From Puniceicoccales bacterium (lineage in GTDB: Bacteria; Verrucomicrobiota; Verrucomicrobiia; Opitutales; JAIRLG01): a DNA stretch of 32,000 nt. Numbering within the stretch: position 1 is the first letter of the stretch; each line of letters begins with the position of its first letter. This document shows, one piece after another, positions 1,023-24,263 of this stretch. Under the pieces are notes generated by a model. That model had not been told where the DNA came from, made no database searches, and worked only from the letters and a program-made list of their open reading frames with translations. The translations under genes and the position numbers were made by a program. The stretch covers positions 64,281-96,280 of the forward strand of contig JAITRB010000016.1 of assembly GCA_031288595.1 (NCBI GenBank), read 5' to 3'.

Positions 1023-1121
1023 GCCGCCTTTGGGGCCCTTCGGGCCCAGCCCGCCCTGCGGGCGGGCTCCGGGGCAGGACAATGAAAGAGATCTTTCATT
1101 GTCCTGCCCCGCAAAGGCGGC
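1023..1121 (+). repeat. Cloverleaf-like intergenic repeat, copy 1 (closing stem, short hairpin, GC core hairpin, long variable hairpin)
   Basis: Closing stem GCCGCCTTTG (1023-1032) pairs with CAAAGGCGGC (1112-1121). Short hairpin GGGCCC-ttc-GGGCCC at 1033-1047. Core GCCCGC-cct-GCGGGC at 1049-1063. Long hairpin has a perfect 18-bp stem, 1071-1088 with 1093-1110. The + strand is defined as the orientation with the short hairpin 5' of the core. Confidence 0.8.
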
Positions 1122-1185
1122 ATGAGGAAATGCAGAAGCTCCGATCCCGCGAATCAGCCCTCGGGTCATCGAAGTTCACCAGGAG

Positions 1186-1878
1186 CTAGGGGAGCAGTTG
1201 CTCTATCGCTTCCCGGGCAGCAGCCTCCTGTGCGCGTTTCTTGGATGACGAGTGAGAACGACCGTAGAGCCTGCCATTGAGCCACAGCTCGACCTCAAAG
1301 AGCTTCTGCGGGGCCGCTCCCTCTTCCCTTACCAGTCGGTACTCGATGCTCCAGGTCGGGCTCTGACTCTGGGCATACTCCTGAATCCGTCCCTTGGGAT
1401 TGTAGTCCCGCATGAGCGATTCCAGATGGCTTCGGATGTCCCCTAAGCACTTCAGGATCACCCGTCTGGTCTTGGCGAATCCCGCTTCGAGAAAAATAGC
1501 CCCCACCAGAGCTTCGAGCACATCCTCCACGGCGGAAGAGGCTAGGGGCCCACCGGAGGCCGCTTCGTCGAAATGTATCCATGGGCGCAATTCCATCTTT
1601 TCCGCCAACGCCGACAGGAATTTCCCACTGGCCAATGCGCTCCTGTAAACCGTGAGCTCTCCCTCCGCCTTGTCCGGAAAGGTCCGAAAGAGTGCCTCTG
1701 CCAGAATGGCTGACAGAACCGCATCGCCCAAAAATTCCAGGCGCTCGTAGTTCTCCGTTGCCGAAACTGACGGGTGTGTCAGTGCTTTCTGCAAAAGCTC
1801 CTCCGACCTAAGGCGATAGCCAAAGATTTTCCCCAAAGCCTTCACCGGCGGAGACTCTTCTCCAGAAAACCCGCTCAT
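1186..1878 (-). CDS. rnc: Ribonuclease III
   Basis: 230-aa ORF with the RNase III signature ERLEFLGDAVL and a C-terminal dsRNA-binding-like region. Its start overlaps the stop of the upstream GT8 gene (ATGA at 1875-1878). Confidence 0.95.
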   Translation of the reverse strand: MSGFSGEESPPVKALGKIFGYRLRSEELLQKALTHPSVSATENYERLEFLGDAVLSAILAEALFRTFPDKAEGELTVYRSALASGKFLSALAEKMELRPWIHFDEAASGGPLASSAVEDVLEALVGAIFLEAGFAKTRRVILKCLGDIRSHLESLMRDYNPKGRIQEYAQSQSPTWSIEYRLVREEGAAPQKLFEVELWLNGRLYGRSHSSSKKRAQEAAAREAIEQLLP

Positions 1879-2867
1879 GAGCTTTTCGTTCCCAGGTAAC
1901 TCCTGAGGGGATCCCGAATTGCCTTTCGGAAAAATCTCTCGATGCAGGACAGGCTATGCCACGGCGAGAATCCCCTCACTGGCTTCGTCCTCTTCGCCGC
2001 TTCTCGTAGGGCTTGAAACTTCTCTGCGAAGGGAGTTCGAAAGGCCGTTTGCCAGAAGAGGTGGGTCAAGTAGTAGCAATCCCAGCGCCGTGGCAGCTTT
2101 GGCCGGATGTTCTTCGGTACACGGGCCAGTTGCGCTTCCAGTTTTTCCGAAAAGGCCTTCCAGGGCTTTTGGTAGATGAAATGGACGATGCTCATCTCTT
2201 CCAAACTGCCCGAGGTCCTGTAGTCAAATCGATTCCAACGGGGCTGGAGCGGACAGAACTGCCCCTCGGCGAGGATATTCAGCGGGTCCTGTTCGGGAAA
2301 ATCGAAGGGCCCCCTTGCCCGTATGAGGGCCACCAGGCGCTCCGTCAGCCCTTCGCTCCGCCATCGGATGGGCTCGATGAGCAGAACGCCCACGTTGAAG
2401 TAATCCGCATCTTGCGGCCGTCCCAGCCGGCGGTTGTGCCACCGCAGCGGACTAACGCCCCGTTCCGAGCGCGCCGCGAAGGCATGGCCTCCAAGTTCGG
2501 AATGGTAGAGTGACTCCCATTCGCCCAGCACCAATGTGTCGCTGTCCAGGTAGAGGATGCGAGGGGACTCGGGTAGGATTTCCGGAAGGAATATCCGGGC
2601 ATAAACCGCCGGACTGGGATATTTTTCCGTCACGGGCAATGAGCGAACGGCTTCCGGTAAGGAATGAAAGTGGAGCTTCAGGAAAGGGAAGTTCTTTTCC
2701 AACTGCTTCATTTTGAACTGGGAATTTTCCGAAATCGCGTCGTCCAGCACGTGCGCCTGCACTGGAACCCGGCCATGGTGATGCTCCATCAGCGACCAGA
2801 GCGCCACCGCCGTAAAGGGCACATAGGCTTCATCACAGGCAAAGGCGACGTGTAGGATCTCTTCCAT
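1875..2867 (-). CDS. Glycosyltransferase family 8 (LPS glycosyltransferase-like)
   Basis: 330-aa ORF with GT8-like N-terminus HVAFACDEAY, a DxD motif in YLDSDTLVL, and FNVGVLLI. Translationally coupled to rnc. Confidence 0.8.
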   Translation of the reverse strand: MEEILHVAFACDEAYVPFTAVALWSLMEHHHGRVPVQAHVLDDAISENSQFKMKQLEKNFPFLKLHFHSLPEAVRSLPVTEKYPSPAVYARIFLPEILPESPRILYLDSDTLVLGEWESLYHSELGGHAFAARSERGVSPLRWHNRRLGRPQDADYFNVGVLLIEPIRWRSEGLTERLVALIRARGPFDFPEQDPLNILAEGQFCPLQPRWNRFDYRTSGSLEEMSIVHFIYQKPWKAFSEKLEAQLARVPKNIRPKLPRRWDCYYLTHLFWQTAFRTPFAEKFQALREAAKRTKPVRGFSPWHSLSCIERFFRKAIRDPLRSYLGTKSS

Positions 2868-2906
2868 GGACTAATATTTGGAGTCTTTCTGTGAATTGTG
2901 AGGGTT

Positions 2907-2993
2907 CCGCTGTCTTGGCCCCATGAAAATTTTTCTCATTTTCATGGGGATGCCCGCTGCGCGGGCGCTCCCTTTGGGAGCCAAAGATAGCGG
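2907..2993 (-). repeat. Cloverleaf-like intergenic repeat, copy 2 (inverted orientation)
   Basis: Closing stem 2907-2918 pairs with 2981-2993 (one bulge, one G-T pair). Long hairpin CCCCATGAAAAT (2919-2930) pairs with ATTTTCATGGGG (2938-2949). Core GCCCGC-tgc-GCGGGC at 2952-2966. Short hairpin GCTCCC-ttt-GGGAGC at 2967-2981. Confidence 0.75.
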
Positions 2994-3065
2994 ATAGGAA
3001 GCCCTATGCCGGGCCAATTCCCCCTGTCTCCGAAGCCAATGTATGAAAAAATTTTTCAATGGGGT

Positions 3066-3593
3066 TTAGAGAAAGTGTTTGGAGAAAATTTCCTCCAATA
3101 GGCCTTCCAGGTCTCTCGCCTCTATGGGTTCCGGCAGCCAATCACGGAGGCGGCAGCAGTGGGAGCGGATGTCATCGGGATAGCGCTCAAGATCGCCGTT
3201 GACGTTGAGGCCCACCCCGCAGGCCGCCAGATGAACCTTTTCCGATACCACCCGGGTTTCCGTCAGGATCCCGCCGAGCTTGCGCCCCTGGATCATCAGG
3301 TCATTGGGGTACTTGAGCGCTACGGGTACCTGATGGCGCTCCCGCAGCGCCTGGCTGAGAAGAATGGCCACTTTGGTAGAGCAGTGCCGAAAGTCCTGTG
3401 CGACCTGCCGGGGCTGCCAGAGGATCGTCCAGTAGAGATTGCCTGGGTCGTCGCTGTACCAGCTGTGATCCCCCCGTCCCCGACCTGCGAACTGCCGCGA
3501 CGCGACGACGACGAAGGGCGGAGCCTTTTCAGCACTCAGGCGAAAGGCCTCGTCATTCGTGCTATCGACCACATCCCGGCGCAGGGTTTCCAT
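3066..3593 (-). CDS. birA: Biotin--[acetyl-CoA-carboxylase] ligase, catalytic domain only (short form)
   Basis: 175-aa ORF with BPL motifs DSTN, GRGRGDHSW (biotinyl-AMP loop), KYPNDL and GVGLNVN. There is no N-terminal HTH. Only about 45 aa follow the GxGxNxN motif, so the usual C-terminal domain seems absent. Confidence 0.8.
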   Translation of the reverse strand: METLRRDVVDSTNDEAFRLSAEKAPPFVVVASRQFAGRGRGDHSWYSDDPGNLYWTILWQPRQVAQDFRHCSTKVAILLSQALRERHQVPVALKYPNDLMIQGRKLGGILTETRVVSEKVHLAACGVGLNVNGDLERYPDDIRSHCCRLRDWLPEPIEARDLEGLLEEIFSKHFL

Positions 3594-4032
3594 GGGAAAT
3601 TCTCTTCTAAAAAATGTCGAAGATGAGCATCGCGAATCCCTGGAGCAGCGCGGTTCCCAGGAGCAGGTAGAGGGCGAGCCGGTCGCAGAGGCTCTGGCTT
3701 CCCCCTCGCTGTTCCGCCCGACGGCAGGAGGATGCGAGGATCCTCGACGAGCGCCGCTGCAGCGACCCGCGGTAGCGATTCAGAAGATGCGTCAGGTCTT
3801 TCGGACTGAGAGGATCGCGGCCCATAATTTCTTTCTATCATCTCCGAGGAACCACTCAAGGCGAAAGAGGGGAAAAGAATTTCGGAAAAGAACGGGGCTT
3901 TTCTGGAATATTTTCTCTCGGAGGAACGGTGGAGTCCTTTTGCCCCGTGAAGAACTTTCTCTTCTTAGTCATCATCGGGAACCCCAGAGCTTTTGCTCTT
4001 GCTTCCGTGACTTTCTTCTCCTCAGTAAAATC

Positions 4033-4133
<101 letters not shown>

Positions 4134-4364
4134 CTTTCCCTCTTTCGACTTTCGGCCTAGATGGAATTTCTGGAGGGAAGAAAGGTGCGGACCGGCTCTC
4201 TAAAACTTCCGCCTTAGGCTTTTTTCGGTGGAGTTTTGAGCCTGAGTGTTCCGAAAAGGAGCTTTTCCCCTTCCATACCAGATTCCGGCTTGAGGGGATT
4301 GTTTGGCTCCGAATGAAGGGAAAGCGTCCCTGCAGAAGTTTGGATTTTTCCAGGGCGGTTCTGT

Positions 4365-4493
4365 CCGCTGCCTTTGGATTCCGGAGGAATCGCCCGCGAA
4401 GCGAGCCCCAGAGCAGAAGAGGAAAAATTTCCCTATGGAGGCAGAGGGGCTGAGAGTCTTTATTTTTCCTCTTCTGCTCTGCAAAGGCAGCGG
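4365..4493 (+). repeat. Cloverleaf-like intergenic repeat, copy 3 (expanded long arm)
   Basis: Closing stem CCGCTGCCTTTG (4365-4376) pairs with CAAAGGCAGCGG (4482-4493). Short hairpin GATTCC-gga-GGAATC at 4377-4391. Core GCCCGC-gaa-GCGAGC at 4392-4406 has one mismatch. Long hairpin has perfect 20-bp arms, 4409-4428 with 4462-4481, and a 33-nt loop. Confidence 0.8.
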
Positions 4494-4606
4494 CGAGTAT
4501 CCGCAAAAGCATTTGTCTTTCCCGAAAACAGAAACCCCATCCTGATTCCTGTAAACGGTCCCTTTCCCAAGAAAGTTCCCGAAGCTACGGGAATGGGAGC
4601 AGCTCC

Positions 4607-5029
4607 TCAGCGCTTGGAGAACTGGAAGTGCTTACGGGCGCCGGGCTGACCGGATTTCTTCCGCTCCTTCATCCGTCCATCCCGACTCAGATGATCGGCC
4701 TTTTTCAGGGAAGAGCGCAGGCTCGCATCCATCTTTTGAAGAGCCCTGGCAATACCCAGGCGAAGCGCACCGGCTTGGCCCTGGATTCCCCCGCCCAGTA
4801 CCGTCGCCGTCACATCGAATTTATCCGTCAATGCCACACACTGCAGCGGAGAAATGGCTTCCCGACGGGCACTTTCGAGGCAGAGGTAGTGCTCCCAAGC
4901 CCGTCCGTTGATGAGAAATTTCCCTTCGCCGGCCCGAAGCCGTACCTTAGCCACCGCTGCCTTGCGCCGACCGGTACCGAGAAATTCCGCCGCCGCTTCC
5001 GTCCCAACGCTCCTCTCATCGGATGCCAT
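4607..5029 (-). CDS. rpsI: 30S ribosomal protein S9
   Basis: 140-aa ORF with the characteristic GGGxxGQAGA segment (GGGIQGQAGALRLGIARAL) and the basic C-terminal ...ARKHFQFSKR. It sits in the conserved rplM-rpsI pair. Confidence 0.95.
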   Translation of the reverse strand: MASDERSVGTEAAAEFLGTGRRKAAVAKVRLRAGEGKFLINGRAWEHYLCLESARREAISPLQCVALTDKFDVTATVLGGGIQGQAGALRLGIARALQKMDASLRSSLKKADHLSRDGRMKERKKSGQPGARKHFQFSKR

Positions 5030-5040
5030 AGAATTTGAAC

Positions 5041-5472
5041 TTAAATTTCCAGTGGGATGGGATTCTGGGCCTCATGGGGATGCGTCGCTCCCGCGTAGAC
5101 CTTCAGCTTTTTGAACATGGTGCTGGCGAGGCGATTCTTGGGCAACATCCCTTTGACCGCGTGTTCGACGAGAAAGCAGGGCCTCCGCGTCCGCAGGGTC
5201 TTTGCCGAGAAACGCCTCTCATTGCCCTGGTACATGGAGTAGAACATGTAATCCTTGTCCTCATCCTTTTTCCCAGTCAGACGTACCTTCTCCGCATTCA
5301 CGATGACGACGAAATCCCCCTCATCCATGTGCGGCGTGTAGCTGACCTTGTGCCGCCCGCGCAGAACATTGGCCACCTTGACCGCTAGACGCCCCAAGTT
5401 CCCCTTGGCCGCATCGACGAGGAACCACTTCTTCGCGTTCATGTCCACCTTTTTGACCAGCGTCGTTTTCAT
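5041..5472 (-). CDS. rplM: 50S ribosomal protein L13
   Basis: 143-aa ORF. KKWFLVDAAKGNLGRLAVKVANVLRGRHK and GDFVVIVNAEKV are typical L13 sequence. It lies immediately upstream of rpsI. Confidence 0.95.
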   Translation of the reverse strand: MKTTLVKKVDMNAKKWFLVDAAKGNLGRLAVKVANVLRGRHKVSYTPHMDEGDFVVIVNAEKVRLTGKKDEDKDYMFYSMYQGNERRFSAKTLRTRRPCFLVEHAVKGMLPKNRLASTMFKKLKVYAGATHPHEAQNPIPLEI

Positions 5473-5563
5473 CGGAGCATCAGCAACTGAGCTGCAAGCT
5501 AGAGTCCTCGCTCCTCTCTGTCAAACTTTTTTCTCTTAACAGCGGGCGGATTTACTCCTGGGT

Positions 5564-5908
5564 TCAGCCCGGTGGCCAGCCCATGGATCGGCCGGCGAGG
5601 AGGTGGATGTGCAGATGTGGCACCGTTTCTCCGGCCATGCGCCCGTTATTGATGACGAGGCGATAGCCATCGGTGAGCTTTTCCCTTGCGGCAAAGGCTC
5701 TGGCCGTGAGCAATAGCTTCCCGAGCAATGCCGCCTCCTCTTCCTCTGCCTCAGAAATGCGCGGAATGGGTTTCTTGGGAATGATGAGCGCGTGGACAGG
5801 AGCCTGAGGAGCGATGTCCTTGATGACGAGAGCCTCTTCGGTCTCCAGGAGAATTTCGGCCGGAATCTTCCGGCAGATGATCTTTTGAAAAAGGGTCAAT
5901 TCCTCCAT
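5564..5908 (-). CDS. HIT family (histidine triad) nucleotide hydrolase
   Basis: 114-aa ORF with the histidine triad HLHIHLL near the C-terminus. Confidence 0.9.
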   Translation of the reverse strand: MEELTLFQKIICRKIPAEILLETEEALVIKDIAPQAPVHALIIPKKPIPRISEAEEEEAALLGKLLLTARAFAAREKLTDGYRLVINNGRMAGETVPHLHIHLLAGRSMGWPPG

Positions 5909-6134
5909 ATCTCTCTGTGAAAAGCCATGAGATTATTAGTCTTGCGGACTATCTCTCCACTTCAAGTTTTAAAAAGTTCCCGTAAAGGAGCGGAGTTTAA
6001 TCTTCAGAAAAGCAGACGGCTTGGGGGAGGATAGGCCAGAATCCTTCAGGGACTTTCCCTATATTTTCCTTTTGTCAGTCGGGACAAAATCTTTATCCTA
6101 AGCCGTTGCAAACGGAGACCTTCGGAATAAGGAG

Positions 6135-7973
6135 ATGGGAGATTCACCGCAGATTACTCGCTCTACCGGGCTTGCACCGCTTGGGCCAAGTGAAGGGATC
6201 CAAGGCCGTCCTTCGATTGCGCTCTTAAAGAGAGATCGACAGGTCTCTCTTTCGGCGGAACAGCAACCCAGTATCCCGGTGCAGCCACTTAGCCTCAGGT
6301 CTCATCCCCAGAATCGTAGGCAGAATGAGGGATTGGATGCCATAGGGGAAACATTGACTGGGGCGAGCGCTACTGGCGATCTTCAGAACTTACGCGATCG
6401 ACTGGATGAGGCTCGGAAAAAATGGCAGTCCGGTGGAGCTGATTCTTTTGCCGAACTGGCCGAAGTGCTCGCGGATATTGCTTCAACTTTGGCGCAATCC
6501 CCAGCGGGATTGGATGGGAAAACCTCGCAGGCGATCTTGGATCTTTTGTATGGGGATATCGATCCATCGGCGAAAGATTCGCCTCTTTCGCCGGAAGAGT
6601 TTCGCAGTTGTGTGAACGCTTTGGCTCAGCTGGTGGGTGAAGTGAAGGCCATTATAGGAGAATCCCATCCTGTGCTGGATCTATTTCATTTTTCTCCCCA
6701 AGAAGGCCGTGAAGTGGCCGTTGTTTTCAGGAATAGTGATGGGGAACTGATGGCCCTGCAAGGCGAGGGAACAGGCGATGGAATCCAAGTCGAGGGAAAA
6801 GCAGAGCGACTGGCAGATTTCGTCACCAAGCATGCTGATGTTGATATCCCATTATTAGTTGTTCCCCGAGAGATCGTTTCAGGAGATTCCCTAGAAACAG
6901 ATGCCGAGCTTAGGGCAAGTGCAGCGAGCACAGATCGAGAGATGCTGAACCTTAAAATTAGAGGCAGTGTATATACTGTTCCCGCGGGAGCTCTTCAGGG
7001 GACAGATGTGGAGTATGCCCGAGAGGCGATAGAGAGAGGTTTGAAGTCTTTGCAGAAGATCATGGCTGGCAATCCTGATGAGTTACGGAAAAATTCTCCC
7101 ATTCATTCACGTCAGGACATGGCGGATCTTATGTGGGCATTGGATGCAGAAGCCTGGAAGATCAGTCCCAGATACCAGGCTAGCGGGAGTGCGATGTATG
7201 TGTCCGATGCGGAGAATAAAATATACGCGGCCCTATTGGGAGCGAAAGATGGAGAAGGGAAACCGTTTGCCTATTTCCGTGGAGGGAAGAACGACAGCTC
7301 TCATCTGCAGCCTTTTCCAAACAGCAAAGCCTCGCAGTATGGATTCAATGCCTATGAGGATGGAGCATCGGCAACGGACCCGAGGGAGGTCAAGTTGCCC
7401 TATGGGAAAAATACGCTGTTATTCGGTAAATTGGAAAAGACTGAGAGCGGTTTTGGCAAAAATCGAAGCTTTATAAAGCTTGAAAGCTACGGGACAGACA
7501 GCCGAGGGACGGGTATCAAGGCCCGCTGGAATTCCTTTAAGAATCTGTTATGCCACGGTTTGGAATGGTTCACAAAGTGCCTCTGTGGTATCGATTCCTC
7601 TACTAGGGAAAGTAATTTCACAGAGAAGACGACCTCTATTCACAGAGCGGTCTCTTCCTTCTGCGAAGAGCATGGCAATGGAGTCGAGGGTGATTTCTGG
7701 AATGGCCTAAAATCAGCTGCCGAGCGCGGTTTAACTGCATTGGCTCAGCATGTCGAAAAACTCAAGGCAATGGATCTCCCCCCAAAGCAAGCTGCGTTCC
7801 TCATGGAACTCGAGGGAAGCATCAATCGCCAACTTGAAGGGAGCATTTTAAAAGAGCATCAACTAGAAACCCTAGAAGAATGGCAGTCGAGCGGGGAGGG
7901 GGATGGACAATCGGCGTTAGCCTATTTCGCCAGGCACGATCAATCCGGAAGGGAGATCATTTTGGATCTATGA
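6135..7973 (+). CDS. Hypothetical protein, 612 aa, no recognisable domain
   Basis: Long uninterrupted ORF, and the only plus-strand gene between 0 and 13.8 kb. AAGGAG lies directly upstream of the ATG. The N-terminal ~70 aa are Ser/Pro/Gln-rich with no Sec-type hydrophobic region. It looks more AT-rich than its neighbours by eye. Confidence 0.6.
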   Translation: MGDSPQITRSTGLAPLGPSEGIQGRPSIALLKRDRQVSLSAEQQPSIPVQPLSLRSHPQNRRQNEGLDAIGETLTGASATGDLQNLRDRLDEARKKWQSGGADSFAELAEVLADIASTLAQSPAGLDGKTSQAILDLLYGDIDPSAKDSPLSPEEFRSCVNALAQLVGEVKAIIGESHPVLDLFHFSPQEGREVAVVFRNSDGELMALQGEGTGDGIQVEGKAERLADFVTKHADVDIPLLVVPREIVSGDSLETDAELRASAASTDREMLNLKIRGSVYTVPAGALQGTDVEYAREAIERGLKSLQKIMAGNPDELRKNSPIHSRQDMADLMWALDAEAWKISPRYQASGSAMYVSDAENKIYAALLGAKDGEGKPFAYFRGGKNDSSHLQPFPNSKASQYGFNAYEDGASATDPREVKLPYGKNTLLFGKLEKTESGFGKNRSFIKLESYGTDSRGTGIKARWNSFKNLLCHGLEWFTKCLCGIDSSTRESNFTEKTTSIHRAVSSFCEEHGNGVEGDFWNGLKSAAERGLTALAQHVEKLKAMDLPPKQAAFLMELEGSINRQLEGSILKEHQLETLEEWQSSGEGDGQSALAYFARHDQSGREIILDL

Positions 7974-10900
7974 CCTCACAAGTTGTAATGTCTGAAACTT
8001 GTTTGAGCTAGAGTTATACTTGCTCAAGTCTCGGCAGCGGATTCCCATTCGACGAACGGCCTGAAATTGCTGCTCCAGTTGGCGGAGGCGCGGGAACTTG
8101 AATGGGCACTGGAAGGAAAGGGGCAGGGGAATTTCCAGAAATCGTTCCTCATCGGGGAAATAGAAGCGGAGCTGCAACGTGCAGGAGCCACTCTGCTCCT
8201 GGATGAATGCATGGAGGGCGTCGAGGAAGGCATCGATGTCCGCAGCCGAGCTGTCCAGCTCCCAGAAAATTTCCCGTACAAGCTGGGAAAGTGCTTCGTC
8301 CATGGGCTGGATCTCGCTGACGCTGAGGCGAATTTCCTCATTTTGCCGCCGGACGCTCCCCTGAACGATGAAACTGTCCCCTTCGCTCAAGCGCTGGATG
8401 ACCCGCTCGTAGGTATCGGGGAAACAACTCATGGCCCAGACGCGGTCGCGGGTCTCGAGGTCGAAGGTGGCCCAGGGGCGTTGGTCGCGAACGGGTCCGG
8501 CCGTGGGGCAGGAGCTTCGGGCGATGCGCTGGGTGAAGCGTTTTTGGAGATTCTGCAGAACGCCACAGAGGCGAAAGTGAGCCTGGTGTGCCTGTTCGTG
8601 AAGCCGATTTTCCGCCGGTGAATTGATGGCTTCCAAGAGAGTTCCATAGGGCGCCAGGGGATGACCGGTGACGTAGAAACCCAGTAGTTCCTTCTCGTGG
8701 CGCCACTTCTCCTGGGGAGGCATCGCCATCGTCGGAACGGGGGAAGCAGAGGCCGTTGCGGCGGTTTCCGGAGCCTCCGGGAGCTCGGACCAAAGATCGA
8801 AGAGCTGAGATTGCCCCGCATCGCGGTCTTTTTGCAGCGAGGAGGCCTCGGCCATGGCGGTGTCGAGACCATCGAGCAGGGACTGTCGGTCTTCGCCCCA
8901 CTCATCGAAACTGCCACATTTGATCAGGGATTCCAGCACGCGTCGGTTGACCGTGTGCAGGTCGACACGCCGCAGAAAGTCCCGAAAGCTCTTGAAGGCT
9001 CTATGCCCTTCCCGTTCGACTAAAATGTTCTTCGAAGCCGCTTCTCCTACACCCTTGATGGCCGCCAATCCGAAGCGAATGCATGACTTTTCCAAGTTCG
9101 GAGTGAAATCTTCCAGCGATTCATTGATGTTCGGGGCTAGGATCGGGATTTCCATCCGGCGACACTCGGCGATGAAAGTCGCCATTTTATCCGCATTACC
9201 CAACTCGGCCGAGAGCAGGGCCGCCATGAAGGCAACGGGGTAGTGCGCCTTGAGGTAGGCGGTTTGGTAGGCGATGACGGCGTAGGCGGCGGAGTGGGAC
9301 TTATTGAAGCCATAGCCGGCAAATTTTTCCAGAATGTCAAAAATCTCCTCAGCCTTGATTCTGGGTATGCGGTGGTGCTTGCGGGCGCCCTCGATGAAAA
9401 CCGCCCGCTGCTTGGCCATTTCCTCCACCTTTTTCTTCCCCATGGCGCGCCGCAGGATGTCCGCACCGCCGAGGGTATAGCCGGCGATGACCCGGGCGGC
9501 CTCCATGACCTGTTCCTGATAGACCAGGATGCCGTAGGTTTCTCGGCAGATCTGCTCCAGCAGCGGGTGTGGATAGCGGATTTTTGCTGGATCTTTTTTG
9601 CCGGCGACGTAGGCCGGAATCCACTCCATGGGCCCTGGCCGGTAGAGGGCACTCAAGGCACTGATCTCCTCGACGCTGGAGATCTCGAATTTTCGGCAAA
9701 GGGACCGCATGCCCTCCGACTCCAATTGAAAGATACCGGTGGTCTCCCCGCTGTTGAGCAGGGCATAGGTCGCCGCATCGTCGAGCGGAATGTCGAGGAT
9801 GTGGAAGTCCGGCTGCCGGGTGTGCAGCTGCACGTGCCGCTCGGCATCGGCGATGACGGTGAGGGTCTTGAGGCCCAGAAAATCCATCTTCAGCAGACCC
9901 AATTCTCCCACCGGTTCCATGGAGAACTGCGTCGTCAAGCTGCCCTCCTGCAGGCAGACCGGAATGTGCTGCTCGATGGGACGGTCGGAGATCAGGATGC
10001 CGCAGGCGTGGGAGCCGGTGTTGCGCACCATACCTTCGATCACCTTGCCCTCCTCGATGATCTTCTGGGCCGTCGGGTTGCGCCGCACCTCCTGCTGGAG
10101 TTCTGGGGATTTCTGCAGGGCCTCTTCGAGGGTGATCTTCAGATCGTCCGGCACCATCTTGGCCATGTTATTCGCTTCGGAGTAGGGGATGTCATGCACT
10201 CGACAGAGGTCGCGCAGAACCATTTTTGCCCCGAAGGTGCCGAAGGTGATGATGTTGGCCACCCTATCCGCGCCGTACTTCTGGCGCACGTAGCCGATGA
10301 CCTCTTCGCGCCGCCGCATGCAGAAGTCGATGTCGAAGTCCGGTGGCGAAACGCGCTCGGGATTGAGAAAGCGCTCGAAGAGCAGGCCGAAGGCGATGGG
10401 GTCAATGTCCGTGATGCGCAGGACATAGGCGACGAGACAGCCAGCTCCCGAGCCCCGGCCTGGGCCGACGGAAATGTGATGCTGTCGGGCCCAGGCGATG
10501 AAGTCCCAGACGATGAGGAAGTAGTCGAGGAATCCGGTTTCCTCGATGGTGCGCAGCTCGTAATCCATGCGCTCGCAGAGCATTTTCTGGCGTTTCGAAG
10601 GGGCGTCCTTCCCCGTGAGCATTTCTGGATTTTGGTAGGAAATGCCGTAGCGCTCCTGGAGACCCTGAACGCAGAGTGCGCGCAGGTGGGCCGCGTGGTC
10701 TCCTCGGTAGAGAGTAAGTTCTGCCGGGCTCTGGTGAAAGACGGGATAATGGTTCTCGCCATAGGGCAGCCGGAACTCGCAGCACTCCGCGACCCGAAGG
10801 GTATTGTCCAGCGCGTCCGGACGTTCGCCGAAAATAGCCTCCATCTCCGCCCGAGACTTGAGGTAGAACTGGCGCGACGACATGCGCATGCGCTCGGCGT

Positions 10901-11591
10901 CCTGAATGCGGGAAGCAGTCTGGATGCAGAGCAGGGCATCCTGGGCCTCCCAATCCTGAGCCTTGACGTAATGCGCATCATTCGTCGCGACGACGGGCAC
11001 CCCAGCCTCGTCCGCCAGCCGGAAGAGCTGAGGAAGGATCTCCGCCTGCTCGGGCATGCCGTGGTTCTGGACTTCGACAAAGAGGCGCTCGCGGCCAAAG
11101 ATGTCGATGAGACGGTAAAGACCGGATTTGGCCTCGTCGTAGAGGCCTTTGCGGAGCCTGTCGGACAGGTAGCCCTGCAGGCAACCGGTGAGACAGAGAA
11201 GGTCTTGGGCATTCTCGGCTATGGTCTGCCAGTTGATGCGCGGTTTGTAGTAAAATCCCTGGGTGTGGGCCAGCGAGACCAGGTGCGAGAGGCGGCGATA
11301 GCCCTCCAGGGTTTGGGCGATGAGCTCCAGATGATAGAGTGGAAAACGCTCCCGAACGCGAAAATCCTCCGAGAAGAGTGTGTAGAATTCGCAACCGATG
11401 AGGGGTTTTATCCCGTATTTCTCCGCTTCTTTGATGAAGCTAGGGATGGCGAAGACATTGCCATGATCGGTCATGGCCACCGCCGGCATGCCGAGTTTAT
11501 GGACATGTTCCAGAAGCCGGTCGATGCGACAGGCCCCGTCGAGCAGGCTATAGTCGGTGTGGACGTGGAGATGGACGAAATTTTTCTCCAT
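7968..11591 (-). CDS. dnaE: DNA polymerase III subunit alpha
   Basis: 1207-aa ORF. PHP domain start [14 protein letters not shown], plus conserved segments [12 protein letters not shown] and [25 protein letters not shown]. Confidence 0.97.
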
Positions 11592-11800
11592 GGCGATGAG
11601 CGAGAGGAAGATATTCCTCGAAAAAGAGCCGGAAGGTCAAGGCCGCTTGTGGAAGGAAAGTCCAATCCGTTTCTCTTGGAGCCCCTCCATTCCTTGGGGG
11701 ATAGAGGGTTGTCTAGAAACTGTCTGGACTGAGAAGAACTCGCAGGCTCTCTTCCAGATCCGGGAAATTTCGCCGAAGCCCGCTGGCTCTCATTTTTTTT

Positions 11801-11890
11801 AGCTGGCTTTGCCCCAGGCCGCTGGCACAGCCATCGGCCTGGGGCGGCCCGCGCAGCGGGCAGCGATTCTGAAAGAATCGAAAGCCAGCT
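11801..11890 (-). repeat. Cloverleaf-like intergenic repeat, copy 4 (inverted orientation)
   Basis: Closing stem AGCTGGCTTT (11801-11810) pairs with AAAGCCAGCT (11881-11890). Long hairpin CCCCAGGCCG (11812-11821) pairs with CGGCCTGGGG (11835-11844). Core GCCCGC-gca-GCGGGC at 11847-11861. Short hairpin CGATTC-tgaaa-GAATCG at 11864-11880. Confidence 0.75.
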
Positions 11891-12238
11891 GGCGAAGACC
11901 TCTCCCACCTCATTGACCGCTCTCCACCGCAGAAAAACGAAAGCCTCATCGCTCGTGAGGAGAAGAGTCTAGCTTCGGTGTGAAGGTCTGTTGCTTGAGT
12001 CGGGCACCGCGTTCGACGCGCTCCGTCTCGAATTTGAAGCTGGTGTCCCGCGGGAGGGACGGAGGGCCGAATCCATTTTCCACCGGCAGAGCTCCCGAAC
12101 TAAAAGCCCCCATGAAAAGGGTGAGCTCCCATTTTTTATACGTGTTCATGGGGCTTTGGATCCCGAAGGGATATGACGGGATGCATTGGAATTGTGACGG
12201 GATAAAAGGGAAAAAACGCTGCGATTATTCGGCATCAG

Positions 12239-13483: not shown

Positions 13484-13584
13484 GGTCCCATCCCAATGAA
13501 TTGTAAGGGGAAAGCATTTTCCTGTCGAGGGAGAAGCTTCGGAAGGAGGTCGCGAAGGACTTCGGTGTTTTGGAAACAGTCTTC

Positions 13585-13689
13585 GTCCTGCCGCCTTTAC
13601 GCCCTTGGCCAGGAAGGGCTTGCCCTTCCTGGCCAAGGGCGCCGCCCGCGCAGCGGGCGGGAACCTTTCAGGTTCAAAGGCGGCAGGAC
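13585..13689 (-). repeat. Cloverleaf-like intergenic repeat, copy 5 (inverted orientation)
   Basis: The 14-bp closing stem pairs 13585-13598 with 13676-13689 (core CCTGCCGCCTTT with AAAGGCGGCAGG). Long hairpin has perfect 19-bp arms, 13601-13619 with 13622-13640. Core CCGCCCGC-gca-GCGGGCGG at 13642-13660. Short hairpin GAACC-tttca-GGTTC at 13661-13675. Confidence 0.8.
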
Positions 13690-13869
13690 ACCTGAGAAGG
13701 CAGCGCGTCTGGAAAGGAGGCCTTTCCCTTCTCCTGGCTTCCCCTGGTCGCCGCTGGAGCGGATATGCGGCTTCGGAGGCCTCGGGATAATTTGAGGGGC
13801 AGCGGGATGCGCTTTACATGGGGGGGATCTTTGCTACTAGAGGATTTAAAAACTCGAGGAAAGAGCGCG

Positions 13870-15216
13870 ATGTTCGAGGCGATTGCGGATAAGATGAGCC
13901 GGGCCCTGAGGGCGATACGGGGCCTGCACAGGATTTCGGAGGCCAATGTCACGGATGCCCTGGCCCATGTGAAAACGGCTCTCCTGGGTGCCGATGTCCA
14001 TTACAAGGTGGCGAAGGACTTCATCGCCCGCGTGCAGGAGAGGTGCTTGGGCCAGAAGGTCCTGCTGGGTGTGACGCCCGGGCAGCAGCTTATCCGCGAG
14101 ATCCATGCGGAACTCGTCGCACTGCTGGGAGGCGACGGGGCAGCGGACTTCTTCGGCCGCAGGCCGCTGAAGCTGGTTTTAGTAGGCCTTCACGGTTCCG
14201 GCAAGACGACGACGAGCGTCAAGTTGGCGGTCATGCTGCGGGAAAAGGCTTATCGTCCGGCTGTCATCGCCTGCGATGTCCATCGTCCCGCCGCCATCGA
14301 CCAGCTGGAACAGCTGGCCCAGAAGGCGGATATCCCCTTCTATAGTCTCCGTGGGGAGACGGATGTGCTCTCGATAGCCGCTGCCGGTCTCTCCTGGGCA
14401 GAAGGCCAGGCAGCGGATGCCATTCTGTGGGATACCGCCGGTCGCCTGCAGATCGACGAGCCCCTGATCCAGGAGCTGAAGGATCTGCGTATGCGGGTCA
14501 AACCCCAGGAAATCCTGCTGGTGGCGGATGCTGCTCTGGGTCAGGAAGCAGTTAATGTCGCCCAGCATTTCCACAAAGCAGTCTCCTTGACGGGCATCAT
14601 CCTGAGCAAGATGGACGGCGATGCTCGGGGCGGAGCGGCCCTTTCCATGAAGTCAGTGGCGCAGGTGCCGATCCGCTTCATCGGAACTGGCGAGAAGGTT
14701 TCGGACCTGGAGATCTTTCATGCCGAACGCGTTGCCCAGCGAATCCTGGGCATGGGAGACATCGTCTCGCTCGTCGAGAAGACCGAGGCCGTGATCGATC
14801 GGCAGGAATCCGAGAAGCTGGCGGAGAAGATCCGGCGTTCCAGCTTTAGTCTGGAAGATTTTCTGCAGCACCTGCGCCGATTCCAGACAACGGGATCGAT
14901 CGGCTCGCTGTTGCAGTATTTCCCGAATTCACATCATCTTTCCTCCGAAGAGGCCGACCGGCGCTTCAAAAGACTGGAGGCCATGATCTCCTCCATGACT
15001 CCACAGGAACGGAGGCATCCGGAGATTCTCCATGGCCAGCGGCGCCTGCGCATCGCCAGGGGCTCCGGTACAAAACTGGCCGAGGTTAATTCTCTCCTGA
15101 AGCAGTTCCGCCAGATGCAGCAGATGATGAAGAGGACGAAAAGTGCCCAGGGTCGTCGGGAACTGCAACGGATGATGGCGCAGATGGACCTAGAGGAAGC
15201 TCCATCCTTGAGCTAG
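13870..15216 (+). CDS. ffh: Signal recognition particle protein Ffh
   Basis: P-loop GLHGSGKTTT, DTAGR, SKMDGDARGG, and a Met-rich M domain at the C-terminus. The start is taken at ATG 13870 (MFEAIADKMSRAL...). The upstream part of the tracked ORF is non-homologous leader. Confidence 0.95.
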   Translation: MFEAIADKMSRALRAIRGLHRISEANVTDALAHVKTALLGADVHYKVAKDFIARVQERCLGQKVLLGVTPGQQLIREIHAELVALLGGDGAADFFGRRPLKLVLVGLHGSGKTTTSVKLAVMLREKAYRPAVIACDVHRPAAIDQLEQLAQKADIPFYSLRGETDVLSIAAAGLSWAEGQAADAILWDTAGRLQIDEPLIQELKDLRMRVKPQEILLVADAALGQEAVNVAQHFHKAVSLTGIILSKMDGDARGGAALSMKSVAQVPIRFIGTGEKVSDLEIFHAERVAQRILGMGDIVSLVEKTEAVIDRQESEKLAEKIRRSSFSLEDFLQHLRRFQTTGSIGSLLQYFPNSHHLSSEEADRRFKRLEAMISSMTPQERRHPEILHGQRRLRIARGSGTKLAEVNSLLKQFRQMQQMMKRTKSAQGRRELQRMMAQMDLEEAPSLS

Positions 15217-20054: not shown

Positions 20055-20872
20055 CTCTGGTGAATAGGGGCGCCATCAGAGTGAAAACGCAGGAATTGGC
20101 GAATTTTTTCTTGCGGGGCGTGCTCGCGCAGCTCACGGGCGGGCCCATCGGCCAGAACGGACTGTGTCTCGGCATCCAGAAAGAGCACGCGGCCGTTGAT
20201 CTTGAAAATGCTCTCCAGATCATGGGTTACGATGACGAGGGTTGTCCCGAAGCTCCGGTTGACATTGAGGATCAGCTCATCGAGGTGGCGGGCGCTGATG
20301 GGGTCGAGGCCAGCCGAGGGCTCGTCGAAGAAAAGGATGCGGGGGTCGAGGGCCATCGCCCGAGCCAGTCCGGCCAATTTGCGCATGCCGCCCGAGATTT
20401 CCGATGGATAGAGGTGCTGGCTCTTCTCCAGACCCACTAGGGCGAGCTTCAGGGAGACGATGTCGGCGATGGTGTCCGGAGGGAGGGAAGTGTGCCTTTG
20501 GAGAGGCAGAGCCACGTTTTCGGCCAGGCTCATGTCGCTCCACAGGGCGCCGCCCTGGAAGAGAACACCGAACTGCTGGACCATTTGCTCGTGCTGAGGC
20601 CCATCGGCCAAGGCGAAGTCAATGCCCTGGTAGAAAATATGCCCCGCTTCGCTCGGCAGAAGCCCGATCAGATAGCGCAGCAACGTGCTTTTCCCGCAAC
20701 CGCTTCCGCCGATGATGAGGCAGATTTCTCCGGCCTGCAGCTCGAAGGAGATGTGGCGCATGACGACGCGTTCCCCGTAGCGGGTCTCCAGGTCTTTCAC
20801 CTGCAGAAAGGGAAGCGTGTGTGCTGGAGTTCTCTCTTCCGCCTTGGACATGCGGTGGCCCAGTGAGGACAA
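20051..20872 (-). CDS. ABC transporter ATP-binding protein, MlaF-like
   Basis: Walker A GGSGCGKST, signature ISGGMRKLAGLA, Walker B LFFDEPSAGLD. It is coupled to the MCE gene. An alternative start lies at Met8. Confidence 0.9.
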   Translation of the reverse strand: MSSLGHRMSKAEERTPAHTLPFLQVKDLETRYGERVVMRHISFELQAGEICLIIGGSGCGKSTLLRYLIGLLPSEAGHIFYQGIDFALADGPQHEQMVQQFGVLFQGGALWSDMSLAENVALPLQRHTSLPPDTIADIVSLKLALVGLEKSQHLYPSEISGGMRKLAGLARAMALDPRILFFDEPSAGLDPISARHLDELILNVNRSFGTTLVIVTHDLESIFKINGRVLFLDAETQSVLADGPARELREHAPQEKIRQFLRFHSDGAPIHQR

Positions 20873-20943
20873 AAAAGCTCTGATTTCAAACCAAAGCTTT
20901 TAGGAGATGAGCCGGTATCCGAGTTCCGATGGAGGAGATCTCG

Positions 20944-21043
20944 GGGCTTGGCTGTCTTTGGATCCCAAAGGGATCGGCCCGCGAAGCGGGCCGCAATAGG
21001 GGAAAGGAAAGGCCTTTCCCCTATTGCAAAGACAGCCAAGCCC
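20944..21043 (+). repeat. Cloverleaf-like intergenic repeat, copy 6
   Basis: The 17-bp perfect closing stem pairs 20944-20960 with 21027-21043. Short hairpin GATCCC-aaa-GGGATC at 20961-20975. Core GGCCCGC-gaa-GCGGGCC at 20976-20992. Long hairpin has 15-bp arms, 20993-21007 with 21013-21027. Confidence 0.8.
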
Positions 21044-21163
21044 TACACCATTCCCGCGATGACAGCCTCAAGCTGGTGGCTTCAGGCTTGTTCCCTCTTT
21101 GCCAAGAGAGGGAGACCCTCTAGGGCCTTACCGGAATGTGCAGAAATTTCCAGGGGCCGATTT

Positions 21164-22504: not shown

Positions 22505-22511
22505 GGGTAGT

Positions 22512-24023
22512 TTAGCCGGAATGGCCGAGGGGGCGCATGGGAGGGAAGAGGATGACATCGCGGATGCTCTCGGCCTCCGTCAGCAAGGCGGCCAGTCGGT
22601 CGATGCCGATACCCATGCCGCCGGCCGGAGGCATGCCGTGTTCCAGCGCCAGGAGAAAATCATGATCCAGATTTTGCTTCTCCTCGCCGACCTGGGCCTC
22701 GAAGAGCTGGCGCTGTAGCAGGGGATCGTTCTGCTCCGAATAGGCCGGAGCGATTTCCTGACCGTTGATGCAGAGCTCGAAGACGTCGAGGACGGAAGGA
22801 TCTTCTTCATTCAGCTTGGCCAATGGGCAGAGCTCTCGGGGGAGATGCGTCACGAAGGTTGGCTGGAGGAGCGTGGGCTCGATCCGTTTACTGTAGACCG
22901 CCTGGGTGATCTCGAAATCTCTCTCCTGGCCGGAGAGCTCGATGCCATTTTCGGTACAGAACTGGGCCTTCTCTTCCCTTGTTCTGGAAAACCACTGTGG
23001 GTCACAGGTGCTCTGGCAGACGAGCTCGCGGTAGCTGAATTCCTGCCATGGGCCGCCCAGCTCGATCTCGGTGCCGTCGGGTCGGCTTAGCTGCATCCGC
23101 CCCAGAATTTCCCGGCTGAGGTGCTGGATGAGAGCGCGGATGAGTTCCATCATGCCGCGGTAGTCGCTATAGGCCTGGTAGAGCTCCAGCATCGTGAACT
23201 CCGGATGGTGCTTGCGGGAAAGGCCTTCGTTGCGGAAGATGCGCCCGATTTCGAACACGCGGTCGAAGCCGGCCACCAGCAGGCGCTTGAGGTAGAGTTC
23301 CAGCGAGATGCGCAGGTAGAAGTCGCAGTCGAGGGCATTCATGTGCGTCGTGAAGGGTCGGGCGGCGGCGCCACCGGCGATGTTCTGCAGCACCGGTGTT
23401 TCCACCTCCCTGAAATCCCTAGCCCACAGGAATTGCCGGATGAGCCTGAGCATCTCGGTGCGCCGGATGGCCCGTTCCCGGGAACGAGGGTCGGCGATGA
23501 GGTCCAGATAGCGCTGGCGGCAAATCTGGTCCTCATTGACCAGGCCGTGCCACTTTTCCGGCAGGGGCCGTAGGGCCTTGGCCAAGAGCTTGAGGGCGGT
23601 GGCCCGAAGGGTGATCTCTCCAGTCTTGGTCCGGAAGAGATTTCCCTTTACGCCGACGAAATCCCCTAGGTCGTATTTTTTGAAATCCTGATAGTTCTCC
23701 TTACCGACGGTCTGTTCGGCGACGTAGACCTGGAGGCTGCCGTTCCGGTCGAGGAGCTTGATGAAACTGGCCCGGCCCATCAGCCGAAATACGGTGATCC
23801 GTCCGGCCAGCGAGACCTCCGTCTCCTCGGCTGAGCCGCCCGAGCCTTCTTCCTTTTCGAAGATTTTCAGGGCTTCTTGGCTACTGTGGGACGCTTCCCA
23901 GTTCTGGCGATAGGGGTCTTTCCCCTCCTGCCGCAGAACTCCCAACTTTGCCTTGCGGGTGGCGAAGAGGTCGTGGCTGATCGCGTGGAGAGAGGCATCG
24001 GATTCAGTATCGCTCATGGCCAT
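22512..24023 (-). CDS. lysS: Lysine--tRNA ligase (class II)
   Basis: Class II LysRS segments FEIGRIFRNEGLSRKHHPEFTMLE and GGMGIGIDRL. The start is placed at MAMSDTESD... (ATG 24021-24023), giving 503 aa. Met at 24051-24053 is an alternative. The further-upstream part of the tracked ORF reads through repeat copy 7. Confidence 0.92.
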   Translation of the reverse strand: MAMSDTESDASLHAISHDLFATRKAKLGVLRQEGKDPYRQNWEASHSSQEALKIFEKEEGSGGSAEETEVSLAGRITVFRLMGRASFIKLLDRNGSLQVYVAEQTVGKENYQDFKKYDLGDFVGVKGNLFRTKTGEITLRATALKLLAKALRPLPEKWHGLVNEDQICRQRYLDLIADPRSRERAIRRTEMLRLIRQFLWARDFREVETPVLQNIAGGAAARPFTTHMNALDCDFYLRISLELYLKRLLVAGFDRVFEIGRIFRNEGLSRKHHPEFTMLELYQAYSDYRGMMELIRALIQHLSREILGRMQLSRPDGTEIELGGPWQEFSYRELVCQSTCDPQWFSRTREEKAQFCTENGIELSGQERDFEITQAVYSKRIEPTLLQPTFVTHLPRELCPLAKLNEEDPSVLDVFELCINGQEIAPAYSEQNDPLLQRQLFEAQVGEEKQNLDHDFLLALEHGMPPAGGMGIGIDRLAALLTEAESIRDVILFPPMRPLGHSG

Positions 24024-24153
24024 GCTTTGAATGGGAGGATTGGACGGAATCATACGGCCTTGTAAATGGGAAAACACGGTGAGTTTGGGATAAATGAGCC
24101 TCTTGTCTATTTCCCGACGCCATTCGCTCGAGGATCTTGCGGGTTGTTGGGGA

Positions 24154-24263
24154 TTCCGCCGCCTTTGAAGCCCCGAAGGGGCTCTGGCCCGCGGCGCGGG
24201 CCGCGGGCCGCGCGGAATGGCGAGGCGTTTACGCCTCGCCACTCCGCGCCAAAGGCGGCGGAA
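24154..24263 (+). repeat. Cloverleaf-like intergenic repeat, copy 7
   Basis: The 14-bp closing stem pairs 24154-24167 with 24250-24263. Short hairpin AGCCCC-gaa-GGGGCT at 24169-24183. Core GGCCCGC-ggc-GCGGGCC at 24186-24202, followed by a duplicated GCGGGCC at 24203-24209. Long hairpin has 18-bp arms with one mismatch, 24210-24227 with 24232-24249. Confidence 0.8.

Follow-up and report, generated by a model that had tools for sequence, protein, structure and literature searches.

Seven intergenic elements of 87-129 nt, distributed over a 32,000-nt chromosome stretch of a Puniceicoccales bacterium (Verrucomicrobiota; contig JAITRB010000016.1, positions 64,281 to 96,280; the whole stretch is called the window here), are confirmed as genuine members of a very abundant and so far undescribed family of intergenic nested palindromes. 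In each copy an outer stem closes around three hairpins, H1, H2 and H3, to give a four-way junction. We read the family, at about even odds (probability roughly 0.5), as a lineage-specific, high-copy, non-autonomous and structure-dependent DNA repeat of termite-gut Puniceicoccales, acting as DNA and not as a strand-specific RNA. On our best reading it behaves like repetitive extragenic palindromes (REPs) and bacterial interspersed mosaic elements (BIMEs), or like insertion sequences of the IS200/IS605 type, and belongs to none of them.

Fold of the seven window copies

The elements were picked out in an earlier reading of the letters alone (the sequence-only reading), which paired their arms by hand. 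All seven loci are present where it placed them, each with an outer stem, H1, H2 and H3, and the hand-derived pairings survive computational folding, which returns the four-way junction in seven of seven. H1 has 5-7 bp and a 3-5-nt loop, H2 is GCCCGC-N3-GCGGGC, sometimes with one or two additional pairs, and H3 spans 12-20 bp. With RNA parameters the minimum free energy structure equals the centroid in every copy (z of −10.4, −7.2, −5.8, −7.8, −11.9, −12.0 and −10.7 for c1 to c7), and the complementary strands fold equally well. DNA parameters give the same junction, with z between −7.3 and −13.5. The motif GCCCGCNNNGCGGGC, allowing one mismatch at most, matches the window seven times against 0.30 expected, and none of 100 shuffles reaches seven. 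Covariance model R1, run with filters off, returns exactly the seven copies in the orientations given below (E 7e-13 to 7e-3), the next match in the window having E = 0.33. Outer stems and H3 arms were also listed by a repeat search of the window. The copies, and one degenerate candidate, are as follows.

1023-1121, forward strand: c1; outer stem GCCGCCTTTG/CAAAGGCGGC; H1 GGGCCC-TTC-GGGCCC; H2 core 1049-1063; H3 of 20 bp with perfect arms 1070-1089/1092-1111; flanked by the rnc stop and a pilin-like gene start, and antisense to the two genes
2906-2994, reverse strand: c2; outer stem with one G:T/A:C position; H1 GCTCCC-AAA-GGGAGC; H2 core 2952-2966, with a loop that reads GCA on the element strand; H3 12 bp, CCCCATGAAAAT/ATTTTCATGGGG; the GT8 glycosyltransferase start is 40 nt downstream
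4365-4493, forward strand: c3; H1 GATTCC-GGA-GGAATC; H2 core 4392-4406, mismatched once (GCGAGC); H3 of 20 bp with perfect arms 4409-4428/4462-4481 and a 33-nt apex insertion at 4429-4461; in the convergent gap between the signal recognition particle (SRP) RNA and the rpsI stop
11800-11891, reverse strand: c4; outer stem of GGCTTT type; H1 CGATTC-TTTCA-GAATCG; H2 core 11847-11861; H3 arms 11811-11826/11830-11845, one mismatch (94% complementarity); between the stop of the type II secretion gene T2SS-F and the dnaE start
13585-13689, reverse strand: c5; 14-bp outer stem; H1 GAACC-TGAAA-GGTTC; H2 core 13644-13658, lengthened to 8 bp; H3 of 20 bp with perfect arms 13600-13619/13622-13641; the gap is divergent, flanked by the T2SS-F and ffh starts, and the copy is upstream of a promoter-like site (13528-13500)
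20943-21044, forward strand: c6; 17-bp outer stem 20944-20960/21027-21043; H1 GATCCC-AAA-GGGATC; H2 core 20977-20991 (GCGAAGC mini-hairpin); H3 of 15 bp with perfect arms 20993-21007/21013-21027; flanked by the miaB stop and an ABC ATPase gene start
24154-24263, forward strand: c7; 14-bp outer stem; H1 AGCCCC-GAA-GGGGCT; H2 core 24187-24201; H3 arms 24210-24228/24231-24249, one mismatch (95% complementarity); the gap is divergent, flanked by the starts of lysS and a dUTPase-like gene
24196-24202 and 24203-24209, forward strand: tandem duplication of the 3' arm GCGGGCC of H2 within c7
12095-12185, strand undefined: candidate degenerate remnant lacking H2; AAAAG + CCCCCATGAA...TTCATGGGG + CTTTG + GATCCC-GAA-GGGAT

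The last of these was excluded from the copies; its hairpin resembles H3 of c2, its z is only −1.6 to −2.0 and the covariance model does not see it. H3 is perfect over the full arm in five of the seven copies, not in six as the sequence-only reading had counted, with one mismatch each in c4 and c7. Nor is H3 unique in every copy: that of c1 is seen again in paralogues at loci L103 and L111, and c7 has an orthologue in L075. When the origin of the H3 arms was sought in the window and related loci, only c1 and c7 had relatives and no other match in the window appeared. The compensatory H1 variants reported earlier are all correct. The closing stem is present as described, but where a consensus had been given it varies as well, with compensation; its end sequence is constant only in CTTT/AAAG, and the rest covaries (UA, CG and GC alternatives). 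Copies do occur in both orientations and in co-directional as well as divergent gaps, and no U-tract follows any of them on either strand, all as first described.

Hairpin tips and H2 are hot spots of small rearrangement. Outside the window, a c1-like paralogue carries about 55 nt inserted at the H3 apex (L111, ~955-1010), and the c7 orthologue in L075 (~5160-5195) has a second GCCCGCTGCGCGGGC nested inside H2.

No named REP, RNA family or miniature transposable element with inverted repeats (MITE) was found to fit, which agrees with the earlier failure to recognise the fold. Rfam 15 gives no match overlapping the elements, either at the gathering threshold or with E up to 1, its only real match being the SRP RNA, and literature searches found no description of such a family. 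ARAGORN finds no tRNA or tmRNA gene in the window. For all their cloverleaf shape the elements match no tRNA, and a tRNA, a tmRNA or a tRNA-derived repeat is ruled out by the lack of an ARAGORN-detectable cloverleaf with an anticodon arm. An intrinsic (rho-independent) terminator is ruled out too, since no T-run lies downstream of the hairpins in the flanks of any of the seven; copies c1-c5 are also absent from the terminator-like sites found in window positions 1-14000.

Relatives, covariation and turnover

The family extends well beyond the window. A scan of one genome per species with the pattern CTTTG-N14-20-GCCCGCNNNGCGGGC-N25-55-YAAAG, which fits three of the seven window copies, returned at least 108 stretches. 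At least 69 of these come from three metagenome-assembled genomes (MAGs) of Puniceicoccales, often several per 8 kb: JAITIW Pcl387_bin136, JAIRRP Ct408_bin121 and JAITKE Pcl387_bin38, which we take, from isolate names and the source studies, to be termite-gut bacteria. The remaining stretches, among the matches listed, are single matches in unrelated genomes. A fold-based parse of the matches listed gave 113 canonical three-branch folds in 458 kb of the three MAGs, and three in 267 kb of other genomes, all of them outside the family size and stem pattern. The same kind of scan over metagenomes (120 loci, 709 kb) gave no canonical fold; these loci are chance matches and are thus usable only as a negative control. 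A single viral contig matched the pattern, and the covariance model rejects its membership. In 0.46 Mb of MAG loci the model recognises at least ~150 distinct copies. Among the matches listed JAITKE comes nearest to the window, with 83-86% nucleotide identity over lysS-kdsD, and a Logan contig of run SRR14710895 (L112) and the window are essentially identical.

Single pattern matches in many unrelated genomes are what chance GC-rich hairpins or an assembly artefact would have to offer in their support. The results refute this explanation, to which we give practically no credence: seven copies stand against 0.3 expected, with model E-values down to 7e-13, hundreds of copies recur in independently assembled MAGs, JGI contigs and the Logan contig, and background matches to the pattern lack canonical folds. 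Assembly is affected in another way. The Logan contig, from the same strain, is broken inside c3 (L112, 4561-4614), and other contigs likewise end inside copies (L025, 1-78; L024, 1-96; L020, 7956-8000; L094, 5320-5406), indicating that the family fragments short-read assemblies.

Three subfamilies can be told apart, and the window has members of all of them. A-type copies read GGTTTGCCGCCTTT / GAGCCC-TTC-GGGCTC / GGCCCGC-TAC-GCGGGCC / GCGGTAAGGAAAAATGAAAGC-TCCC-GCTTTGCATTTTTCCTTACCGC / AAAGGCGGCAAACC and dominate in JAIRRP and JAITIW, where many are near-identical, those of JAIRRP over all 108 nt. B-type copies read ..GCTGTCTTTG / GATYCC.. / GCCCGC-GNA-GCGGGC / CA / CAGCG.. or CAAG.. / CAAAGACAGC.., with a very variable H3. 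C-type copies have a GGCTTT outer stem. The description "conserved by structure rather than sequence" therefore applies inside the window but not in relatives, where near-identical copies, long hairpin included, indicate a repeat family related by descent. Structure without sequence is a property of the window's sample of old, mixed copies. A second, unrelated repeat occurs in JAIRRP and is absent from the window: a palindromic unit of ~150 bp with ends CTAGAGGGTGTCGTCAAAAAAG...TTTTGATGACATCCTCTAG (L034, 1189-1377 and 1487-1659; L096, L044, L081 and L057), which flanks A-type copies as direct repeats to make a composite repeat of ~340-480 bp.

Covariation was assessed on several alignments. 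In MAFFT alignments of full (A1) and lightly trimmed (A2) copies the outer stem and H3 did not line up, and of the helices RNAalifold gave back H1 and H2 alone. For this reason a gapless idealised seed (A3), with junction bases and the H3 interior removed, was built for the model, and results based on it were checked on real model matches (alignment A4). Pairing was found in 97.9% of cells in the seed (48 sequences) and in 97.5% in 150 real matches, percentages that are partly circular because the seed consists of trimmed, fold-selected copies. Counts of both-side changes and slid controls are free of this circularity. Both sides change in 19 of 29 pairs in the seed and in 27 of 29 in the real matches, the latter with 680 such cells against 148 ± 10 in shuffles, and the slid controls of the real matches pair at 42-51%. 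Covariation is strong in three of the four helices, and H2 is essentially invariant. The 33 copies of the young A subfamily show decay as well as compensation, with 39 compensated double changes against 60 uncompensated single ones, and unpaired positions are 2.3-fold more variable than paired ones.

Orthologous regions, taken from the scan loci and from a search for dnaE homologues, were compared gap by gap.

c7 gap: window, B-like copy; L075 (JAITKE), conserved orthologue in the same orientation
c4 gap: window, C-type copy; L111 (dnaE 94% identical in amino acids), a different, B-type copy in opposite orientation, plus the c1-like paralogue with ~55 nt at the H3 apex
c1 and c4 gaps: window, copies present; L110 (dnaE 80%), unrelated copies
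c2 and c3 gaps: window, copies present; L110 (dnaE 80%), no copy
All sites: L109 (dnaE 80%), none in 17.6 kb, the c5 gap being empty
c1 gap: window, copy present; L044 (JAIRRP), empty, about 100 nt against 339 nt
c2 and c6 gaps: window, B-type copies; L044 and L108 (JAIRRP), A-type copies

The comparison reveals presence/absence differences between relatives at the c1, c2, c3 and c5 sites. The c7 orthologues differ by a T:A→G:C change and by loop-closing double changes. Near-identical bursts, presence/absence differences and replacement at the same gaps together indicate a mobile or recently mobile family with occasional long-lived copies. Target-site duplications were not detected: no direct repeat of at least 3 nt exceeds the mismatched-partner control, and 2-nt boundary matches are an artefact of palindromic GC/CG inside the stem. 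The A-type flank ggcg is conserved on the 5' side only, in 50-70% of copies.

These observations bear on whether the family is an ordinary MITE. Its outer stem would then represent a deleted insertion sequence's terminal inverted repeat, and a DDE transposase gene elsewhere in the genome would serve to move the element. The ends have the form of terminal inverted repeats, and a length of 87-129 bp, intergenic position, absence of coding and multiple copies fit the general description of MITEs (PMC10969869). We nevertheless think it quite improbable, given the missing target-site duplications, a GC-rich rather than AT-rich element, no related insertion sequence or multi-copy open reading frame (ORF) in the window and related loci, and a sole invariant part, H2, that is internal. 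The ends also differ between copies in sequence and in length (4-21 bp), again with compensation, and a DDE transposase that reads sequence would not accept such variation.

Action as DNA or RNA

None of 120 copies is located within a gene. The 100 classifiable copies comprise 64 in co-directional, 21 in convergent and 15 in divergent gaps, convergent gaps being over-represented (21 copies in 38 gaps against 64 copies in 209 co-directional gaps). In co-directional gaps 32 copies are sense and 32 antisense relative to transcription. An RNA selected on one strand should tolerate G:U and not A:C. Stem mismatches number 83 G:T, 71 A:C and 64 others (G:T against A:C, p = 0.38), and relative to the mRNA strand 36 are of G:U type against 46 of A:C type. 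B-type copies have T-runs on the 5' side and A-runs on the 3' side, the reverse of a terminator.

Either polarity is seen at the hairpin tips. At the asymmetric A-type H3 apex, made up of the loop and a one-base bulge, 35 copies read TCCC and 10 read GGGA, the exact reverse complement, both forms being present within single genomes; flip:flop counts are 34:9 in JAIRRP and 3:12 in JAITIW. The two c7 orthologues have the same H1 stem with different loops, GAA in the window against TCC in L075. Loop polarities of H1 and H2 are independent in B-type copies; an apparent correlation between them was rejected as subfamily confounding, vanishing within that type. Loops of the form GNA or TNC, nearly all closed by C:G, are found in H2 of 92 of 120 copies (77%) and in H1 of 86 of 120 (72%), against 12.5% of random triloops. 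H2 therefore contains GCGNAGC on one or the other strand in the 92 copies. This heptamer is an extraordinarily stable DNA mini-hairpin whose RNA counterparts are much less stable (PMC13037366; PMC3201870).

Together, the 32:32 orientation, the lack of a G:U excess, the loop and apex inversions and the GNA triloops disfavour a functional RNA, and the tests point away from a strand-specific one. Of the two readings offered at the outset, the functional RNA thus loses ground, and the folded DNA or mobile element gains it, with no enzyme found. An RNA module that works in either orientation, protecting mRNA 3' ends, providing an RNase III or processing site or insulating cistrons, seems unlikely to us. 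Such mRNA-level roles have been proposed for REP, ERIC and Correia elements, and RNase III takes long, perfectly paired duplexes as substrates. Either strand gives an equally good RNA fold, covariation is strong, co-directional gaps hold 64 of the 100 copies with convergent gaps over-represented, and c7 is better conserved than its flanks. Against this, G:U is not in excess over A:C on either the element or the mRNA strand, and GNA triloops stabilise DNA, not RNA. Fifteen copies lie in divergent gaps, and c5 is upstream of a promoter-like site. U-tracts are missing, and the B-type runs are reversed. The rpsI gene has its own terminator-like hairpin with a T-rich tail (4576-4593, reverse strand), 14 nt after its stop and before c3, which suggests that the operon ends before c3. 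Finally, fast turnover at orthologous sites is unexpected for a required RNA.

For the structure-dependent DNA repeat that we favour, the following course can be proposed. In single-stranded DNA during replication, or in a cruciform driven by supercoiling, each strand would fold into the four-way junction, the fold being nucleated by H2 and H1, mostly C-GNA-G mini-hairpins on one strand or the other. The invariance of H2 suggests that it is read sequence-specifically by a protein acting in trans, for which it would be the recognition site. The most plausible reader would be a structure-dependent nuclease or transposase of the HUH (IS200/IS605-RAYT) type, RAYT being the REP-associated tyrosine transposase; single-strand movement of HUH type is the best guess in view of the absent duplications, of "terminal repeats" that vary and of a flank conserved on one side only. 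The outer stem, H1 and H3 would need only to fold, and hence could drift with compensation. Near-perfect arms and the loop and apex inversions might be kept up by two processes acting together: only foldable copies may propagate, and template switching within the palindrome may copy one arm from the other and invert the tip, a segment lying between short inverted repeats. Some copies were perhaps co-opted by the host, c7 being better conserved than its flanks.

The same features could suit a DNA site used by the host, with mobility past or incidental: a folded strand or extruded cruciform to which a host protein such as a nucleoid protein or gyrase would bind, as in BIMEs, or a lagging-strand-template initiation (primosome) signal. 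The invariant H2 implies sequence-specific reading, the two strands are equivalent, spacing is regular, at roughly one copy per 3-5 kb in most long gaps, and c7 is conserved. Mini-hairpins of this kind are present at the single-stranded DNA priming sites of the phage G4 origin and RSF1010 ssiA (PMC13037366). We judge a host site rather unlikely: L109 has none in 17.6 kb and other relatives lack copies at shared sites, so no site is required, near-identical subfamily bursts are typical of selfish spread, and a candidate binding protein was not found.

Several points weigh against the mobile DNA repeat itself. The enzyme hunt combined an all-against-all search for multi-copy ORFs, regular expressions for IS200/RAYT motifs and Pfam on genes bracketed by copies. 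It found no transposase, RAYT/IS200 motif or multi-copy ORF in the window or ~0.49 Mb of related loci, and six-frame translations of the related loci (~0.5 Mb of fragmentary MAGs) contain no HUH...Y-x-NPV or IS200 N-terminal motif; with MAGs so fragmentary, this negative is no proof of absence. Ten genes tested between copies less than 2.3 kb apart were all housekeeping genes, among them gpsA, class-V aminotransferase, GAPDH, adk, dprA, efp and acyl carrier protein. Identity between c7 and its L075 orthologue reaches 85%, where the flanks have 66% and 53%, a conservation that, with its compensatory changes, fits a host-level function, at DNA or RNA level, better than a purely selfish element. 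The less variable stems of the young subfamily would be the outcome of any structural constraint, and the pairing percentages carry the circularity described above. REPs carry a GT(A/G)G head (PMC2817692), which is absent here: neither the A-type flank/end consensus ggcgGGTTTGCCGCCTTT nor the B-type tttg..GCTGTCTTTG has GTAG or GTGG. Moreover, we infer the ends of the element, its target and its actual movement, and it is likewise from the pattern that we read template switching as what made the arms perfect and flipped the tips.

A bolder version of the DNA reading, which we regard as speculative, is a structure-defined class of mobile DNA in which a folded four-way junction or double cruciform would be read by an enzyme through the invariant mini-hairpin, with arms self-templated and tips inverted. 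If true, it would be a chromosomal counterpart of the parvoviral flip/flop hairpins and would imply a mobilising nuclease or recombinase family not yet tied to bacterial repeats. The H2 mini-hairpin offers a handle for capturing the protein that reads it. More generally, the family is a natural experiment on the inheritance of structure versus sequence in selfish DNA, and it cautions that strong covariation alone does not identify a functional RNA.

Gene setting and known systems

The window is an ordinary housekeeping chromosome segment. Its genes include rnc, a GT8 glycosyltransferase, lipB, the SRP RNA, rpsI, rplM, a HIT protein, dnaE, T2SS-F and ffh, together with ABC/Mla transport, miaB, lysS, a dUTPase-like gene, kdsD and pilus/secretin genes. 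As the sequence-only reading observed, there is no transposase or recombinase gene in it. Its figure of seven occupied gaps longer than about 125 bp also stands, although out of 11 such gaps (at least 125 nt) and not ten, by our gene calls and with the SRP RNA counted as a feature.

The SRP RNA is of the bacterial small type (4035-4134, forward strand; RF00169, 58.8 bits, E 1.2e-10). It sits in the 441 + 472-nt non-coding stretch from lipB to rpsI that it shares with c3, and the ORFs listed across it (3559-4203) are spurious. Exact-protein look-ups of rpsI and rplM led only to one short contig of the same strain (L112). Three conserved ORFs have no Pfam match: 6135-7973 (612 aa), 25884-26837 (317 aa) and 28067-28705 (212 aa), all on the forward strand. 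Two of them, of 612 aa and 317 aa, are matched by syntenic genes of relatives (L109/L110/L112 and L075), and an exact-protein look-up of the 612-aa ORF gave no record.

Around dnaE, about 100 nt upstream of the gene (window 11592-11700 against L111 1200-1301) is highly conserved, with CCACAAGC..CCTTGACCTTCCGGC.CTTTTTCG.GGAAT, and the remaining gap is unalignable; this stretch is probably the dnaE promoter or leader, and the elements lie outside it. Between T2SS-F and dnaE, relatives have one or two extra genes (242 aa in L111; 275 and 75 aa in L109). About 120 nt at window 11973-12095 is kept, 81% identical to the start of L111 (1-123; the L109 comparison covers 2975-4080), and is probably a gene remnant. 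In L109 (9897-17629), a relative of 80% identity, synteny breaks after the HIT gene, beyond which lies the ribosomal cluster rplQ-rpoA-rpsD-rpsK-rpsM-map-secY; the window and L110 have rplM-rpsI instead.

REPs, BIMEs and MITEs influence how bacterial genomes are organised, what becomes of mRNA and how well genomes assemble, and the present family resembles each in part. Like REPs, BIMEs and REPINs, the elements are high-copy, extragenic, GC-rich palindromes in both orientations, with adjacent pairs often inverted (five of seven pairs, a small sample). They share with REPs the lack of target duplications and a folded single strand as presumed substrate, and complementary stem changes have also been reported for REPs (PMC2817692). 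REPs are, however, single imperfect hairpins of ~20-40 nt, whereas three hairpins here sit in a closing stem over 87-129 nt, and what stays invariant is a mini-hairpin in the interior. A RAYT was found neither in the window nor in related loci; the origin of RAYTs has been placed in gammaproteobacteria, with no homologues in other major bacterial lineages (PMC2817692), and the present host belongs to the Verrucomicrobiota. Membership among REPs/BIMEs was rejected: copy number, extragenic position and alternating orientation agree with them, and the single short hairpin and the GT(A/G)G head do not.

IS200/IS605-type elements are without terminal inverted repeats or larger duplications (PMC2817692). 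As in that system, folded single-stranded DNA hairpins may be what is recognised, and the one-sided A-type flank could be a target or cleavage motif. The differences are that no TnpA or TnpB was found, that the elements are symmetric with a closing stem where IS200/IS605 has distinct left and right subterminal hairpins, and that orientation in the window is unbiased (four forward, three reverse) despite a constant GC skew.

MITEs such as Correia/NEMIS, ERIC, RUP, the Rickettsia RPE and the Coxiella QMITE are likewise small, non-coding, intergenic and multi-copy, and MITEs fold as stable stem-loops when transcribed (PMC10969869). They have conserved terminal repeats and direct-repeat duplications and are usually AT-rich, in contrast to the GC-rich four-way junction described here. 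Membership fails on the absence of duplications and the non-conserved ends, and a parent insertion sequence was found neither in the window nor in related loci.

With integron attC sites the elements have in common that the structure of the folded strand is kept while central sequence and length vary. An attC site is a single imperfect hairpin with R and L boxes and extrahelical bases, strand-specific and placed at the 3' end of promoterless cassettes near intI. This assignment was ruled out, since the ends lack GTTRRRY/RYYYAAC, intI is missing, the neighbours are housekeeping genes and the strands are equivalent. The analogies to attC and to REP/RAYT hairpins first drawn for the elements thus hold for the shared traits of a folded structure and fall for membership in either, the defining tests of both having failed.

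The inverted terminal repeats (ITRs) of parvoviruses, including adeno-associated virus (AAV), are T-shaped hairpins at the ends of linear single-stranded DNA genomes, and their flip and flop forms arise from hairpin-primed replication. The likeness, an analogy only, lies in nested palindromes, small GC hairpins within a closing stem and two inverted configurations; the elements here are internal chromosomal repeats. The GCGNAGC initiation signals of the phage G4 origin and RSF1010 ssiA (PMC13037366) contain the same mini-hairpin as H2, as single phage or plasmid origin sites there and as many dispersed chromosomal copies here.

The present elements form a family not described before, with a four-way architecture that is unusual and a host phylum that has been little studied. 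To our knowledge, the interspersed palindromes described so far come almost all from Proteobacteria and Firmicutes and are single hairpins. What sets this family apart is an uncultured Verrucomicrobiota host, the filling of most long gaps, and one fixed arm beside three covarying arms. That last feature, along with tip inversions and covariation without RNA function, may surprise specialists in bacterial repeats.

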